Made by a program: the position numbers and the translations under genes. A stretch of DNA of 64,000 bases from Pseudomonadota bacterium (GTDB taxonomy: Bacteria > Pseudomonadota > Gammaproteobacteria > Pseudomonadales > Pseudohongiellaceae): the NCBI GenBank assembly GCA_040384465.1, contig JAZKJF010000009.1, positions 2,129 to 66,128 of the forward strand, read 5' to 3'. Positions within the stretch are counted from its first letter, which is position 1; each line of letters starts with the position of its first letter. The notes beneath the pieces were generated by a model, which had not been told where the DNA came from, ran no database searches, and saw only the letters and a list, made by a program, of their open reading frames with translations. Below, piece after piece: positions 42,902-49,296 of this stretch.

Positions 42902-42964
42902 TCAAATACCCTTGACTGTATCGCAAAGGAGATACAATATTCGCAAAGAATAGAGGATTTGATC

Positions 42965-43243
42965 ATGGCCAACACCACGATGCTACACGTCCGAGTGGAC
43001 GATGACGTTAAAACGCAAGCAAGTGAAGCACTGGCAGCCATGGGGCTGACAGTGTCAGATGCTGTGCGCATCCTGCTCAAGCGTGTGGTCGACGATCAGG
43101 CTTTTCCGTTGGAGCTCAAAGTCCCCAACGCCCAGACCCGTTCTGCCATGGAAGAGGCACGCTCGATGATGAAAGCCCGTGCCGCCCGTTTCGAATCTGC
43201 GGACGCCCTGCTCAATGACCTCGAAAAAACCAACCAGCAGTAG
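42965..43243 (+). CDS. dinJ: RelB/DinJ family antitoxin
   Basis: MANTTMLHVRVDDDVKTQASEALAAMGLTVSDAVRILLKRVV is a ribbon-helix-helix DinJ pattern. ATG 42965 follows AGAGGA. Confidence 0.85.
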   Translation: MANTTMLHVRVDDDVKTQASEALAAMGLTVSDAVRILLKRVVDDQAFPLELKVPNAQTRSAMEEARSMMKARAARFESADALLNDLEKTNQQ

Positions 43244-43535
43244 ACGCGCCAGCCCACCCAAGGCGTGCGACTACACAAAATTCTTCCTCAAGGACTGGGA
43301 GCGCCTCTTTCGCTCTGGCCGCTACGATATGGAGCGAATGAAAGAAGCGATGCTGTTACTCATCGCCAACGATGCTCCGCTCGGCCTCGAATGGCTTGAT
43401 CACGCACTCAAAGGTGCGTGGTCTGATCACCGCGAATGCCACATTGGCGGAGACTTCTTGTTGATCTATCGACTGGAAGGAAATTCAATCACGTTCGTGC
43501 GCGCTGGTACGCACTGCGACTTATTTGAGCAATAG
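43215..43535 (+). CDS. yafQ: YafQ-family (RelE superfamily) mRNA interferase toxin
   Basis: DYTKFFLKDWERL...LDHALKGAWSDHRECHIGGDFLLIYRLEGNSITFVRAGTHCDLF parallels E. coli YafQ. The start is uncertain: ATG 43215 overlaps dinJ by 29 nt and has no clear RBS. Confidence 0.7.
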   Translation: MTSKKPTSSRRASPPKACDYTKFFLKDWERLFRSGRYDMERMKEAMLLLIANDAPLGLEWLDHALKGAWSDHRECHIGGDFLLIYRLEGNSITFVRAGTHCDLFEQ

Positions 43536-43566: not shown

Positions 43567-43959
43567 TCAGGTCGGATTATTCGAGCTGTTGTTTGAAGAA
43601 CCTTTCAGCGCATCGCGCAGCCCCGCAAAAGGATTGTGCGTCGCGGCCTGTTTCTTGTTCTCTGTGGTACCGCCGTAGCGGATGAAGTTGGCGAACTTGC
43701 TGTGCTCCTCGTCGTGACAGTAGAGGCACAGCAGCTCCCAGTTGCTGCCATCGACTGGATTGCAGTCGTGATCATGATTGACGTGATGCACCGTCAACTC
43801 GCGCAGGTTCGCCCGTGTAAACTCCCGCGCACAGCGCCCGCAGATCCACGGATACAGCTTCAACGCCTGTTCGCGATAACCCCGCTCGCGTTCCGCGATG
43901 TAGCGCCGTTGTGCGTCCAGCGCCTTGTCGGCGGCGGTGCCTTTGTCTGTTCCGGCCAT
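43567..43959 (-). CDS. yajD: YajD family HNH nuclease
   Basis: GYREQALKLYPWICGRCAREF...LRELTVHHVNHDHDCNPVDGSNWELLCLYCHDEEH aligns closely with E. coli YajD as I recall it. Confidence 0.85.
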   Translation of the reverse strand: MAGTDKGTAADKALDAQRRYIAERERGYREQALKLYPWICGRCAREFTRANLRELTVHHVNHDHDCNPVDGSNWELLCLYCHDEEHSKFANFIRYGGTTENKKQAATHNPFAGLRDALKGSSNNSSNNPT

Positions 43960-44167
43960 ATTCTCTTACCTCATGCTCTTCACACTGGGCGTCATTGCTT
44001 AATCACTTCTCCCAGCAACATGGGTTTCGCCGTGTTATCGACTGCCTGGATTATGGTCCACTTGATGGAATAGCTCCAGCCTTGTGGATAACCCTATCAG
44101 TTGACATTCCCCCACCCTCCCCCGAAACTCCGGACATCCTGATTTTTACCGGACGCCAGACACTCCC

Positions 44168-45901
44168 ATGGACTACTACACCCGGAACGCCAGCGATCTG
44201 TTCCGACAATACAGTTCACTGAACCCCGCCGACGTGCATCGCGGCTGGCTCGATTTGCTGCCTGCACAAGCCGGCCTCGCATGCGACATCGGCGCAGGCA
44301 GCGGGCGCGATGCCGCCTGGCTGGCCAGCAAGGGCTGGGATGTCATTGCCGTGGAACCCAACGCCGAGCTGCGCGCACTGGGTGAGCAGCACACCATCAG
44401 CGCCGCCGCCAACTCCAGCACTGCCATTGGTGGCGTCACATGGCTCGACGACGCGTTGCCGGAATTGAAGCAACTGCGCTCGCTGGATCAACGCTTCCAG
44501 CTCATTCTGATCAGCGCCGTATGGATGCATCTGACGCCTGTGCAACACGAGCGCGCCATGCGCATCGTCAGCGAACTTCTCACGCCCGGCGGCATGCTGG
44601 TGATTTCCCTGCGACTCGGACCAGACGTCGCCGGACGGTTTCATCCCATCTGCGCGGATGAGTTGATTCGCCTGGCACAGGATCGCGCGCTTGTGAACAA
44701 AAGACGTTTCCGCGGAAACGACTTGCGGCGTGAGGAGGTCGAGTGGGATACAGTGGTGTTTACATTGCCGGACGATGGCACGGGAAGTCTGCCGTTGCTG
44801 CGGCACATCATCGTCAATGACAACAAAGCGGCGTCGTACAAACTCGGTCTGTTGCGTGTGCTGATTCGCATCGCCGAAGGTGCGCCGGGCATGGTGACAA
44901 AGCGCAGCGACGACTGGGTAGAGATTCCATTCGGGCTGGTCGGGCTGTACTGGCTGAAGACCTATATGCCGCTCGTGCTGCGTCATAATCTGATTCAAAC
45001 ACCCGCTGCCAATCACGCGACCCAAAGTGGTTACGGTTGGGCAAAGCACGAACACTTTTACAGTCTGCAGGACCTCTCAGCTTATGACCTTCGCGTCGGC
45101 GCATCGTTCGACGCCAATGTTGCCCCACGTCTCGTCGGCGCTATTCGCGATGCCTGCATCAACATCAAGAAGATGCCAGCTCACTACATCACCTATCCAG
45201 GCGAAAACCGCCAAGTGTTTGAGTGTGAGACGAACACAGTCAGGCATGGCTCTACACCATGGCAGATCACTCGCGAAAGCCTGCGACAATTTGGTACTTT
45301 CCGCATCCCCGCAGCGCTATGGCAATGCTTCAGCCAATACGCCTGCTGGCTGGAGCCAGCCATCTTCAATGAATGGGTGAAGCTGATGCAAACCTGGAAC
45401 TTCCAGTACGACACCAACGTATACAGCGGCGCATTTCAGTGGATAGACGCCAAACGCGATACAACAAAAGTCAGTGAGCGCATCAAGCAACTGCACAATC
45501 AAGGACAACACGTTGAATGCGTGTGGACCCACAAGAGGCTAATCATCGCCAACGAAAAGTACGCCGTCGATCACTGCTTCCCATGGTCACGCTGGCTCAA
45601 CAATGACCTCTGGAATCTGATGCCTGCTACGACAAGCGCCAACAATTCCAAGAGTGACAAATTGCCATCAGCGGGTTTGCTTCAGCATTCGCGCGATCAC
45701 ATTATTCATTGGTGGGAGCAGGCATATATTGAGAGTGAATTATTGCGACAGAAGTTCTTCATTGAAGCGGAAGCAGCATTGCCACTCATCGCAACTGGAA
45801 GCACGGACATTGATGCAGTGTTTCATGCGATGCAACATCAACGGGCGAAATTGAAGGCCAGTCAGCAGTTGGCTGAGTGGAGTATTGCGCCTACAATCTG
45901 A
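44168..45901 (+). CDS. fusion protein: N-terminal class I SAM-dependent methyltransferase + central unknown domain + C-terminal HNH/His-Me nuclease
   Basis: 577 aa. Motif I is ACDIGAGSGRDAAWLASKGWDVIAVEP. The post-I region is LILISAVWMHL...GGMLVISL. The central region contains ASYKLGLLRVLIRIAEG. The C-terminal YAVDHCFPWSRWLNNDLWNLMPATTSANNSKSDKLP (about 45560-45680) is HNH-like. Confidence 0.7.
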   Translation: MDYYTRNASDLFRQYSSLNPADVHRGWLDLLPAQAGLACDIGAGSGRDAAWLASKGWDVIAVEPNAELRALGEQHTISAAANSSTAIGGVTWLDDALPELKQLRSLDQRFQLILISAVWMHLTPVQHERAMRIVSELLTPGGMLVISLRLGPDVAGRFHPICADELIRLAQDRALVNKRRFRGNDLRREEVEWDTVVFTLPDDGTGSLPLLRHIIVNDNKAASYKLGLLRVLIRIAEGAPGMVTKRSDDWVEIPFGLVGLYWLKTYMPLVLRHNLIQTPAANHATQSGYGWAKHEHFYSLQDLSAYDLRVGASFDANVAPRLVGAIRDACINIKKMPAHYITYPGENRQVFECETNTVRHGSTPWQITRESLRQFGTFRIPAALWQCFSQYACWLEPAIFNEWVKLMQTWNFQYDTNVYSGAFQWIDAKRDTTKVSERIKQLHNQGQHVECVWTHKRLIIANEKYAVDHCFPWSRWLNNDLWNLMPATTSANNSKSDKLPSAGLLQHSRDHIIHWWEQAYIESELLRQKFFIEAEAALPLIATGSTDIDAVFHAMQHQRAKLKASQQLAEWSIAPTI

Positions 45902-45929
45902 GACAAAAATATCACTGCATTAACCACAA

Positions 45930-46707
45930 TTCATAGCCAAAGCTTTTCAAATACGTGTTCGCGATGAAACACCAAGAAGTCAGAATGTGGCAGAAATTTC
46001 TCAGGTTTAGCAATCTGCTTCCCTTCATAATTTTTAACCGCACTCATGTAAAAGAAGTCACTATCACTGAATCCCTTGCCGGAAACTCGCACGGTGAAGT
46101 CGTCACGGATTGTAATAAGACCAAGATCAAAGGCTTTATCATGGAGAGCAGAAAGAGCAAGCCCATTCGCAGGATTTTTCCTATTAGCAGAATCTTAAAC
46201 CCAAGGGACTATGTGGCTTGCAACCAGAAGTTTTTGCACAGAAAGCCCGCTTATGCAGCACTTGAAGTCGTATGCAGTTAGCACAGCATTTCTAAAAAAG
46301 TCTTGCCCCCTTCTTGCCGTGCACTGCACTATCCTGTTCTCTCCTGTGTAGTCCATTTCGTCCAATGCCAGCGGCATCGCGTACAAAGAGCTGTCTTTAA
46401 GAACATCTTCAACTGCTTCGCCAGAACTTTGCTCGAAGGCATTCCAGTCGGATTGCATTCCCTTCCACATACTTTTGTCAGGGTTTGATGCCCCAGCAAG
46501 CCCTTTGCGCCCCGTTGACGTTATCTGAGGGTCAAGACTAGCAATGTTTGTAAGCTTCATTGCCAGTGCCGAAGGAGTTCTACCTAGTAATTCCGCAAAC
46601 TTGATTATCTGAGGATTTCGCGAGTGCATCTTTCCGAATGGAATTTGGCAATAAAGCCAAAATGCCACCAGCAGCTGCTGACGGGTCCAGGCATTTGAGG
46701 CAGACAT
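45930..46707 (-). pseudogene. COG3183-type HNH restriction endonuclease gene interrupted by an in-frame TAA
   Basis: The 170-aa ORF ends ...CCISGLSVQKLLVASHIVPWV-TAA (46195-46197). The same frame continues DSANRKNPANGLALSALHDKAFDLGLITIRDDF... to the TGA at 45930-45932. The HNH core is therefore split by a single nonsense codon. Confidence 0.75.
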
Positions 46708-46807
46708 TAGCTACTCCTTAGGTACCTTTCTGCGTTGTAGCACACAAAGCAAGATAGAGTTCGATGACCGAATTTTTACAGTATGCTTTTAGATACTCGA
46801 CTTTGCC

Positions 46808-47581
46808 TCAACCCAACTTCTGAACCGCCCTGCACTTTGGATAACCCGTACATCCCCAGAATTTTTCACCCATATTAGGTCCAGACTTTGTCACTCGAAT
46901 TATCAGGGCGCTCCCACATCGAGGACAAAGCCGATGAGCAGATTCGTCCAATCTCTGCTGCAGTCTTTGCACATGATCTTGATGTGTTGCATAGGTCTGT
47001 GCCAATCGCTGTGTCTGTAGAACATCGATCATCTGCACGACCTGATCATCGCTGAATACGGGGGTGGTGAAGGATCTTATGAACCGGATACCACCACCAG
47101 CATGCCGCACATTGTCGGGCATGGCAGTTTTCAGCGTTGCTGAGCCAACGAATATCACCAGCGAATGAATTGTCTCAATTGGCAGGGTGAGCGCAGACTC
47201 AACGGCTTTCACATGCTTGAAGTTCTGCCGCAATGGATTCTGAAATTTTGCGGTAGCTCTATAGATTTTCTGCGTCCATTGCGGCTGATCTTCTGAACCA
47301 AATATCCAACCCTTCATATTTTTAGTTTCTACAATAAAAATACCAAAGCGTGATACGACGATATGATCTATCTGCGTAGTCCCATCTGGGGTCGGCAGCG
47401 TGATGTTGTGGAGTTGATGGTAAATTGATTTATCGAGAGACCATTTGAATCTCAAACGCACCATCAGCTCGCCAAGCCAACCTTTGACGAACGGCACTTT
47501 GAATGCGCTGATAAGAATTGCGAGAGGGAAAAGCCACCAAAGCGAGAGCAGTCTATTGAGCAGAATCTGCGGAACATCCAT
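46808..47581 (-). CDS. NERD (nuclease-related domain) protein with C-terminal topoisomerase-type C4 zinc ribbon
   Basis: 257 aa. N-terminal TM segment, then the NERD core (GELMV...DHIVVSRFGIFIVETKN). The C-terminus is CPRCGSALIIRV...FWGCTGYPKCR. AT-rich (20/60 GC in line 47281, counted by hand). Confidence 0.8.
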   Translation of the reverse strand: MDVPQILLNRLLSLWWLFPLAILISAFKVPFVKGWLGELMVRLRFKWSLDKSIYHQLHNITLPTPDGTTQIDHIVVSRFGIFIVETKNMKGWIFGSEDQPQWTQKIYRATAKFQNPLRQNFKHVKAVESALTLPIETIHSLVIFVGSATLKTAMPDNVRHAGGGIRFIRSFTTPVFSDDQVVQMIDVLQTQRLAQTYATHQDHVQRLQQRLDESAHRLCPRCGSALIIRVTKSGPNMGEKFWGCTGYPKCRAVQKLG

Positions 47582-47695: not shown

Positions 47696-48127
47696 ATGCC
47701 CATCTGGACCCGCCCCCTCACCCTAGAACTCATCACCGCCACCACCCGCGACACCGCCGTGCACAACCTCGGCATCGAGTTCACGGAGATCGGTGACGAC
47801 TATCTGTGCGGCCGCATGCCGGTGGATGCGCGCACGGTGCAGCCGCGTGGCATTTTGCATGGCGGGGCGTCGGTGTTGCTGGCCGAGACGCTGGGCAGCA
47901 TCGCGGCCAACTACTGTCTGCGCGGAGAGCATCAGGCGGCGGTAGGGCTGGAGATCAATGCGAACCATGTGCGCTCTGTGGCGTCGGGCTGGGTGACGGG
48001 CACCGCGCGGCCGATGCATATCGGCGGCAGTACGCAGGTGTGGGAGATTCGTATCGAGAATGACGAGGGCAAGCTGACGTGCATCTCGCGGATCACGATG
48101 GCGGTGATCACGTTACCGTCTGTCTAG
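47696..48127 (+). CDS. PaaI/YdiI-type hotdog-fold thioesterase
   Basis: MPVDARTVQPRGILHGGASVLLAETLGS and GGSTQVWEIRIENDEGKL parallel E. coli YdiI/EntH. Confidence 0.85.
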   Translation: MPIWTRPLTLELITATTRDTAVHNLGIEFTEIGDDYLCGRMPVDARTVQPRGILHGGASVLLAETLGSIAANYCLRGEHQAAVGLEINANHVRSVASGWVTGTARPMHIGGSTQVWEIRIENDEGKLTCISRITMAVITLPSV

Positions 48128-48702: not shown

Positions 48703-48709
48703 TTCTTGG

Positions 48710-48774
48710 TCGCCTGCAGGGCAGGCTCCTACAGTCAGTGGCGTCATCTTGTAGGAGCCTGCCCTGCAGGCGAA
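48710..48774. repeat. REP-like element, family 2 (inverted pair)
   Basis: tcgcctgcagggcaggctcctacag (48710-48734) and tgtaggagcctgccctgcaggcga (48750-48773). Located between convergent VOC genes. Confidence 0.8.
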
Positions 48775-48777
48775 CAA

Positions 48778-49296
48778 TCACCCCAGATAGCCGTGCTGCG
48801 CCAATTGCAGGCGGATGCCGTCCGGGTCATTGAAGTACAACTGGTCTCCGCCACTGGTGCGGTTAGCGGGGTCGCGGCTGATAGACGCCGTGATGCCGTG
48901 TTCCAGCAAGCGCGCCGCCATGGCGTCTGGGTCGTAGTTGTCCACGCCAATGCACAGGTGGTGCATGGTGCCGGGGTTCGCCAGCTGATAGAGACCGAGA
49001 AAACTCTCACCACCCAGCCCCATGTTGAGTCCGCCATTGGCCGGACGACTGATGATCTCCATCCCCAGCACCCGGTTGTAGAACTCAGCGGAGCGGTTGA
49101 CGTCGGCGACAGAGAGCGACACGTGGTTCATCGATATGCCGACAGCCGAAGGTTGCACCACCGGCACCTGCTGCGCGCGGATGATGGGCGAAGCAGCCAT
49201 TGCTCCTGCCAACCCCAGCAGCGAGGCCACCAGTTCGCGACGGCTCATGTGTTTGCGTTCGAATTTGTCGACCAGACTTTCGATTTCGTTCTTCAT
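48778..49296 (-). CDS. VOC family protein with possible Tat signal
   Basis: VOC core (MNHVSLSVADVNRSAEFY...). The internal start at 49248 gives MSRRELVASLLGLAGAMAASP, a Tat-like signal. Confidence 0.75.
   Translation of the reverse strand: MKNEIESLVDKFERKHMSRRELVASLLGLAGAMAASPIIRAQQVPVVQPSAVGISMNHVSLSVADVNRSAEFYNRVLGMEIISRPANGGLNMGLGGESFLGLYQLANPGTMHHLCIGVDNYDPDAMAARLLEHGITASISRDPANRTSGGDQLYFNDPDGIRLQLAQHGYLG

Follow-up and report, generated by a model that had tools for sequence, protein, structure and literature searches.

Defence hotspots, also known as immigration control regions, are a familiar feature of bacterial chromosomes, for example the hsd-mrr-mcrBC region of Escherichia coli and the core-gene-flanked hotspots of Pseudomonas aeruginosa and E. 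coli. In this study we analyze a locus of this kind in a stretch of 64,000 nucleotides (hereafter the window; C9:2129-66128, contig JAZKJF010000009.1) from a Pseudohongiella-type bacterium, the source genome of which (G000, assembly GCA_040384465.1) is a 3.4 Mb draft of 19 contigs with 96.6% completeness; the genus is indicated by the names that its close homologues bear. Three nuclease-type genes follow one another here: an intact fusion of a methyltransferase and an HNH nuclease (MTase-HNH; 577 amino acids (aa), 44168..45901, + strand), a restriction-type HNH_2 gene with an in-frame TAA (45931..46707, - strand), and an intact gene of 257 aa with a NERD domain and a zinc ribbon (46808..47581, - strand). 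Next to them lies a hotdog-fold (YdiI/EntH-like) thioesterase gene (47696..48127, + strand). Our analysis makes it likely that the space 3' of the MTase-HNH gene and upstream of the thioesterase gene is a small defence-type cargo slot, which holds a decaying copy of a cassette in this genome.

On the whole, the locus behaves as the known hotspots do, in that the cargo of one chromosomal slot, of restriction or defence type, varies among related genomes and has an atypical composition, no integrase is needed, and pseudogenes and deletion stubs are common. The hotspot itself is of an ordinary defence type. Three features set it apart, namely that the slot is very small (0.1-8 kb), that its left anchor is an uncharacterised nuclease fusion and not a housekeeping gene, and that one type of cargo recurs as highly divergent alleles.

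The genes of the locus also have described relatives. The HNH_2 protein resembles the two-domain restriction enzymes in which a reader domain is joined to an HNH nuclease, which include modification-dependent type IV enzymes such as VcaM4I, an EVE-HNH protein (PMC7897488), phosphorothioate readers of the SBD-HNH type, and wH-HNH enzymes (PMC11037411). Like these, it is a protein of about 260 aa with a separate N-terminal domain and a C-terminal HNH_2-type domain, which aligns with VcaM4I and, below cut-off, with the model for restriction of phosphorothioate DNA. It differs from them in that its N-terminal domain matches no known reader and that the copy in the window is a pseudogene; moreover, the family is found elsewhere between a C5 methylase gene and an EcoRII-C gene, together with a small partner, which is not the usual context of type IV enzymes.

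NERD domains are found in stand-alone proteins with a zinc ribbon, in PglW of BREX, in MAD6 of MADS and in Nhi-like NERD-helicases. The protein of the window shares with them a full-length NERD domain with the D...E.K motif, carries a zinc ribbon of the topoisomerase type, and lies in a defence neighbourhood. Unlike PglW, MAD6 and the Nhi-like proteins, it has no kinase or helicase domain, and its matches to PglW and MAD6 span only the NERD part of about 90 residues. To our knowledge, no function has so far been shown for the short NERD and zinc-ribbon architecture. An assignment to MADS or BREX was considered and rejected, with mad2 giving 40 bits on the generic methyltransferase fold only, MAD6 and PglW matching on the NERD module alone, and no kinase or other component nearby.

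The MTase-HNH protein, for its part, can be compared with the type IIG/IIC restriction enzymes (MmeI, Eco57I class), which likewise join a methyltransferase fold dependent on S-adenosylmethionine (SAM) and a nuclease in one chain, and it likewise occurs in defence neighbourhoods. However, its methyltransferase is of the small-molecule type, its nuclease is a Cas9-type HNH_4 domain rather than a PD-(D/E)XK domain, and its central domain has no known fold. Membership in type IIG/IIC was rejected, Pfam giving Methyltransf_11/12/23/25 and TehB only, with no match to N6_Mtase or C5.

Variable cargo between the MTase-HNH and thioesterase genes

The comparison covers the 26 genomes of the genus, given G numbers, and a set of examined loci and metagenome contigs, given L numbers. 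Between the MTase-HNH and the thioesterase gene, at least six distinct states of the slot are found among the congeners, as is typical of a variable hotspot. In G016 the slot measures only 104 bp, in which ~16 codons from the end of the HNH_2 gene survive; this stub marks a deletion. In G019 it contains a DUF5131 gene and a TcmP gene (L002:3-1410), the former being phage Gp37/Gp68-like and the latter encoding its three-Cys-motif partner protein, a pair known to be mobile but functionally unexplained. A C5 methylase gene of 43% GC occupies the slot in G041, after which the contig ends. The richest cargo is that of G018 (L048:12286-18132), where an STM2767-family DEAD/DEAH helicase (965 bits) and a 217-aa partner matching no known family are followed by a Dcm-Vsr-EcoRII restriction-modification unit and an M28 peptidase. 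G007 carries a 110-aa gene, an intact HNH_2 gene, a NERD gene and an M28 peptidase gene, at 41-49% GC within flanks of 60-65%, and G006 carries a NERD pseudogene. Recognised defence cargo is therefore present in G018 (Dcm-Vsr-EcoRII), in G041 (the C5 methylase), and in the window and G007 (the PADLOC family PDLC04132). A sequence-only reading of the window, made before this analysis, had anticipated a variable interval here, and the relatives indeed differ in its contents instead of sharing the same genes.

The same reading had taken yajD and the thioesterase gene as conserved core flanks, which has to be given up: the near-core yajD is present in 22 of the 26 genomes of the genus and the thioesterase gene in 20, yet the two lie on separate contigs in most of these genomes, and yajD adjoins the MTase-HNH gene only in the closest relatives, G016 and G041. 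What is kept together is the MTase-HNH gene and the thioesterase gene, within 0.1-8 kb in G016, G019, G018, G007 and G006, and at 6.1 kb in LSUCC0112, an isolate from outside the genus. In Pseudomonas sp. NyZ704, a gene 4.6 kb downstream of MTase-HNH has a 4HBT domain, but it gave no tblastn match to the thioesterase of the window. In addition, MTase-HNH is conserved at 81-94% identity in G016, G018, G019 and G041, beside other cargo or none. Judging from this gene order, the hotspot is bounded by the 3' end of the MTase-HNH gene and by the thioesterase gene, not by yajD, and MTase-HNH appears as its conserved left anchor.

A second, smaller variable point is seen between yajD and MTase-HNH. 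This junction (43960..44167) measures only 209 bp in the window, whereas it measures 2.5-3.5 kb in G016 (L046:253-2771) and G041 (L032:3212-6635), where an FtsH-like AAA protease gene (648-682 aa) and MNT/HEPN toxin-antitoxin genes are present that are lost from the window. The homology of G016 to the window begins at ~44012.

Base composition of the slot and state of its genes

The segment 45650..47600, which extends from the 3' end of MTase-HNH over the HNH_2 pseudogene and the NERD gene, has 46.1% GC against a genome mean of 56.5% (~2-kb windows, standard deviation 3.9%). It lies ~2.7 standard deviations below the mean, ranks in the lowest 1.9% of the ~2-kb windows of the genome, and thereby has the atypical composition of defence islands and variable hotspots. 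A GC drop had been counted by hand in the sequence-only reading, and a sliding-window profile proves the deviation real, as well as the return above 60% near 47.70 kb (62-66% at 47.6-48.0 kb); its depth was overstated, with 33-40% by hand against 43-50% in 300-nt windows between 45.65 and 47.6 kb (minimum 42.7%). The GC content at third codon positions (GC3) is 0.46 in the HNH_2 gene and 0.49 in the NERD gene, while the flanking genes range from 0.65 to 0.85. Over its full length the MTase-HNH gene has 56% GC, equal to the genome mean, and a GC3 of 0.66; along the gene the GC content drops from 62% where the methyltransferase is encoded to 49% where the HNH nuclease is. The low-GC cargo consists of the HNH_2 and NERD genes only.

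The HNH_2 gene has one frame with a single TAA at 46195-46197, which lies four codons past the catalytic His (HIVPWV, then stop) and had been noticed in the sequence-only reading as a nonsense codon. Its two halves match the PADLOC family PDLC04132 ("HNH") colinearly (1e-78 and 4e-31) and cover positions 23-188 and 191-274 of 286, which amounts to a match to the full model. An uninterrupted frame with a complete beta-beta-alpha-metal motif is missing from the window: since the TAA follows the catalytic His, the truncated protein would be without the Asn/His half of the motif. By its reading frame the gene is a pseudogene, from which no active nuclease could be made. HNH_2 is present in 2 of the 26 genus genomes. 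The intact orthologue of G007 has 260 aa, 63% identity, and scores of 5.5e-121 to PDLC04132 and 2.3e-11 to PF13391, and an intact relative with 83% identity is found on the metagenome contig L072. In its HNH domain the protein is similar to VcaM4I, a modification-dependent enzyme (PDB 6yex, 1.7e-8), and by this domain resemblance alone it may be a modification-dependent (type IV) enzyme itself. The N-terminal ~125 aa have no match in Pfam or PDB and are probably a DNA-reading domain. As another candidate, the phosphorothioate-dependent endonuclease family (NF045808) was rejected, with 46 bits for the C-terminal half in the window and 64 bits for G007 against a cut-off of 180, the HNH part alone being aligned. 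A C5 DNA methylase (PF00145), a possible cognate of HNH_2, is not detectable anywhere in the source genome.

The NERD gene scores well above the Pfam gathering thresholds for both of its domains (PF08378, 110.2 bits against 22.1; PF01396, Zn_ribbon_Top1, 39.3 bits against 32). Its protein has an N-terminal hydrophobic segment, a PD-(D/E)XK-like NERD domain in which a D..ETK motif is readable, and a C-terminal C4 zinc ribbon of the topoisomerase type. NERD is present in 7 of the 26 genus genomes, and orthologues with 58-65% identity take the same position in G007, L068 and L069.

A recurrent cassette and its erosion

In G007 and the metagenome contigs L068-L071, the NERD, HNH_2 and 110-aa genes form a tight co-directional cluster, the end of which meets or overlaps the 3' end of the convergent MTase-HNH gene. 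The 110-aa protein represents a real family, being 41-49% identical to the products of ~105-aa genes which follow HNH_2 in unrelated phyla. In the cassette of those phyla, the ~105-aa gene stands between HNH_2, itself preceded by Dcm, and a short EcoRII-C gene, and neither MTase-HNH nor NERD is included. Such four-gene loci are seen in a Pseudomonadales metagenome-assembled genome (MAG), in Sterolibacterium and in a JGI metagenome contig (L061:3669-6733, L062:5001-6528 and L063:4569-6682, respectively); their EcoRII-C-only protein has 145-186 aa, and the methylase open reading frame (ORF) is merely a short fragment or stub in L062 and L063. As for the M28 peptidase gene, it precedes the thioesterase gene in G007 and G018, and LSUCC0112 too has it upstream of the thioesterase gene.

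Neither the 110-aa gene nor Dcm, EcoRII-C or the M28 peptidase is found anywhere in the source genome. The contig L072 has an intact HNH_2 gene without the 110-aa gene, which indicates that the loss of the 110-aa gene predates the nonsense mutation. The same cassette occurs in other Pseudohongiella-type genomes, so that the copy in the window appears to be an eroding one and not a fresh acquisition. Its erosion, as read from the comparison, comprises the loss of the 110-aa gene, of the M28 peptidase gene and of the MNT/FtsH-like block, together with the stop in HNH_2.

The alleles of the cassette have diverged far more than the anchor gene. L068 and L069 share 91% identity in MTase-HNH, 71% in HNH_2 and 61.5% in NERD; the HNH_2 copies of Pseudohongiella, with 63-71% identity to one another, are no closer among themselves than to copies from other phyla, with 60-66%. 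This divergence and the persistently low GC3 fit repeated replacement or strong diversifying selection.

Taken together, we propose that the slot in Pseudohongiella-type genomes takes up interchangeable low-GC cargo, mostly of nuclease or restriction type. The recurrent cargo would be an operon of a membrane-anchored NERD/zinc-ribbon protein, an HNH_2 endonuclease and a ~110-aa partner, convergent on MTase-HNH, and may enter by horizontal transfer or replace a resident allele when recombination takes place in the conserved flanks. An intact HNH_2 protein would act as a restriction nuclease, probably one that senses modification, and the NERD protein may act as a nuclease as well. In the operon copy of the window, as the comparison with the relatives shows, the 110-aa gene has been deleted, HNH_2 is cut after the catalytic His and before the Asn/His that binds the metal, and the M28 peptidase gene and the MNT/FtsH-like block have been deleted at the edges, so that NERD and MTase-HNH alone remain intact. 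As a resident of defence islands, the MTase-HNH protein may cut nucleic acid with its HNH domain under the control of the SAM-binding and central domains.

Several results weigh against this reading. No tRNA genes, integrases or convincing flanking direct or inverted repeats were found at the locus (the lack of an integrase and of direct repeats had been noted in the sequence-only reading too), and the mode of cargo exchange is to that extent conjectural. PADLOC calls single proteins or domains at the locus, among them the match of HNH_2 to PDLC04132, but no complete known defence system, so a defence role is suggested only by association and domain content. Finally, the GC3 of the cassette is not shifted toward that of the host despite its presence at the same site in G007, and recurrent replacement would fit this better than simple vertical descent. 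What can be retained of the acquired defence islet originally proposed is the deviant composition, the variability and the defence genes in the relatives; the three-gene unit and the recent acquisition cannot be retained.

The MTase-HNH family and its neighbourhoods

In the MTase-HNH protein, Pfam places a class I SAM methyltransferase at residues 38-153 and HNH_4 at residues 460-500, and the architecture can be described as a small-molecule-type SAM methyltransferase (~1-200), a central domain (~200-440) and a Cas9-type HNH_4 domain (~445-570). The family has more than 2200 homologues of ~570 aa with conserved length, in at least 587 species genomes, which include Marinobacter, Halieaceae, Alcanivoracaceae and Ectothiorhodospiraceae, and also Latescibacterota and Gemmatimonadota. 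Copies with ~40% identity are carried on alphaproteobacterial and Pseudoalteromonas megaplasmids. A search of a phage collection, on the other hand, shows the family to be essentially absent, the sole match covering the methyltransferase only. The SAM-binding and HNH catalytic residues are invariant throughout the family. AlphaFold models reach a pLDDT (predicted local distance difference test) of 85-88; in fold searches the N-terminal third matches the small-molecule methyltransferases UbiG, NodS, TehB and ChlM, and the C-terminal part matches the Cas9 HNH domain only. The central domain of ~240 residues, conserved and confidently modelled, has no PDB neighbour in the fold search.

The neighbours of MTase-HNH are hypervariable, with 117 clusters among the 162 nearest neighbours of 84 loci. 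The only recurrent one, in 18 of the 84 loci against 116 other clusters for the rest, is a SauUSI-like gene, which encodes a type IV methyl-directed restriction enzyme of ~1040 aa (PADLOC PDLC03659, 754 bits, e.g. L102:3861-6989). It spans Marinobacter, Halieaceae, Natronospirillum and a Pseudomonadales MAG (e.g. L105, L108, L093 and L146), and in most loci it immediately precedes MTase-HNH in the same orientation, with ~12 nt separating its end from the MTase-HNH match; in a few loci (e.g. L093, L146 and L089) it follows just downstream. McrBC is annotated near MTase-HNH in a Roseomonas plasmid record, and McrB/McrC-like ORFs are discerned by eye in Haliea L090. NERD-family genes lie downstream of MTase-HNH in Halioxenophilus, as a NERD-UvrD helicase, and in Pseudoalteromonas. 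Further neighbours are HNH_2, NOV_C, C5 methylases, AbiEii and PDC candidates. For the 100 neighbour proteins scanned with PADLOC, we report the families and not the fraction matched, and no enrichment is claimed. With type IV enzymes, McrBC, NERD-helicases, C5 methylases, AbiEii and PDC candidates beside it, MTase-HNH is seen to reside in defence neighbourhoods, though its composition is host-like here and in Haliea.

Of 83 other MTase-HNH loci, 4 have an HNH_2 relative within 7 kb. One is that of Haliea salexigens, with the relative directly upstream. There, a block of 47-50% GC (L131:2919-6926) directly precedes the MTase-HNH gene of 65% GC and contains a 628-aa caspase-like protein gene and an HNH_2 gene 54-56% identical to the Pseudohongiella copies. 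This block lies upstream, and low-GC cargo is thus also found 5' of MTase-HNH elsewhere.

The anchor gene is itself not spared from decay in some congeners, as is evident from internally deleted and methyltransferase-only copies. The former are ~339-aa ORFs in G015 (L049:9371-10177) and in a second copy of G016 (L050:7264-8070), which keep residues 1-36 and 338-573; the methyltransferase is missing from them, and so is most of the central domain. The latter are remnants in G006, G002 and G008, which consist of residues 1-~198.

Alternative explanations

As an alternative, MTase-HNH, NERD, HNH_2 and the 110-aa protein could be one interdependent four-gene defence system, degenerate in the window, in which, for example, the methyltransferase marks a target and the HNH_2 or NERD nuclease reads the mark. 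The joint occurrence of the four genes in G007 and L068-L071, where they converge and their 3' ends overlap, agrees with this, as do the NERD-family genes which follow MTase-HNH in Halioxenophilus and Pseudoalteromonas and the HNH_2 relatives close to it in 4 of 83 other loci. However, about 75 of the 83 MTase-HNH loci outside the genus are without any of the partners, and the congeners retain MTase-HNH beside quite different cargo. The partners are not bound to it either: HNH_2 and its small partner accompany Dcm and a short EcoRII-C gene elsewhere, without MTase-HNH or NERD, and L072 has HNH_2 without the 110-aa gene. The unequal rates of evolution, with 91% identity for MTase-HNH against 61-71% for the partners, also speak against a single system, which we accordingly consider improbable.

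About equally improbable, in our estimate, is that MTase-HNH is an unrecognised defence component which works together with modification-sensing nucleases and also serves as a conserved landing site for them. The methyltransferase and the central domain would then serve to sense or mark a substrate that stems from an invader, and the repeated placement of SauUSI-like genes, McrBC, HNH_2 with the 110-aa gene, NOV_C and NERD beside MTase-HNH in unrelated lineages would be accounted for. If it were true, the Pseudohongiella arrangement would be one variant of a modular system of marking or sensing and cutting, which is being dismantled here.

Returning to the decaying cassette copy, its decay would be in question if the TAA had arisen in sequencing or assembly, or represented a minor variant of the population, with HNH_2 intact and the islet functional. 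The TAA is the sole defect in a full-length frame 83% identical to an intact relative, and the genome is a draft of 19 contigs. But consensus assemblies seldom contain substitution errors that produce a stop, there is no hint of TAA recoding, the neighbouring genes all ending normally under table 11, and independent signs of decay are given by the loss of the 110-aa and M28 peptidase genes and by the near-complete deletion of the cassette in the sister genome G016. An error is thus very unlikely.

The least probable explanation, already largely refuted, is that the three nuclease genes arrived together as one recent islet between core yajD and thioesterase genes: their adjacency, the GC fall over the right-hand part and the presence of yajD left of MTase-HNH in G016 and G041 speak for it, but MTase-HNH has the GC content of the genome mean and a GC3 of 0.66, stays at 81-94% identity in four congeners with other or no cargo, and is linked to the thioesterase gene in congeners where yajD lies elsewhere, and also in LSUCC0112; in most genomes of the genus, the supposed flanks do not share a contig.

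Flanking genes and other features of the locus

Upstream of the MTase-HNH gene, the identities proposed in the sequence-only reading are borne out by profile scores, as are the coordinates of the three nuclease-type ORFs by the ORF listing. The yajD gene (43567..43959, - strand) encodes a small HNH protein (NF008448, 170.6 bits against a curated cut-off of 87), and the thioesterase on the other side matches TIGR00369 with 124 bits. Before yajD lie a dinJ/relB-type antitoxin gene (42959..43243, + strand; PF04221 RelB, 66 bits against a threshold of 22.4) and a yafQ-type toxin gene (~43179/43257-43535, + strand; PF15738 YafQ_toxin, 91.5 bits against 30), the start codon of which is uncertain, with the Pfam domain at residues 30-117 of the ORF 43179..43535. 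The two are adjacent and both exceed their Pfam thresholds, which makes them a DinJ-YafQ type II toxin-antitoxin pair. The dinJ gene is intact beside yajD in G015, and only fragments of it are found in G041, G019 and G022; it is a neighbour of the low-GC cargo and not a member of it.

An Rfam scan of 42.5-49.5 kb returned zero matches, and a promoter and terminator scan found sites no more numerous than in shuffled sequence. In the intergenic region of the glyoxalase gene (48703-48785), we observed a member of a family of repeats like repetitive extragenic palindromic (REP) elements, ~70-80 nt in length. At least 12 further copies are present in the same genome (C1, C3, C4, C9 and C14), with 81-91% identity and in both orientations, and a few copies are present in congeners too.

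Implications for annotation and for the MTase-HNH family

For annotation, the HNH_2 gene should be labelled as a pseudogene, the boundaries of the cargo should be moved, and yajD should be dropped as a flank. The islet is a textbook case of a small defence hotspot in decay, useful chiefly in this respect. Beyond the genus, the module of Dcm, HNH_2, partner and short EcoRII-C across phyla points to a conserved partner of ~105-110 aa for HNH_2, and we know of no study of this four-gene module. The more interesting lead than the islet itself is its neighbour, MTase-HNH, a family named only as a methyltransferase in the databases, which is a good candidate for defence-gene testing because it recurs beside type IV restriction and NERD genes.

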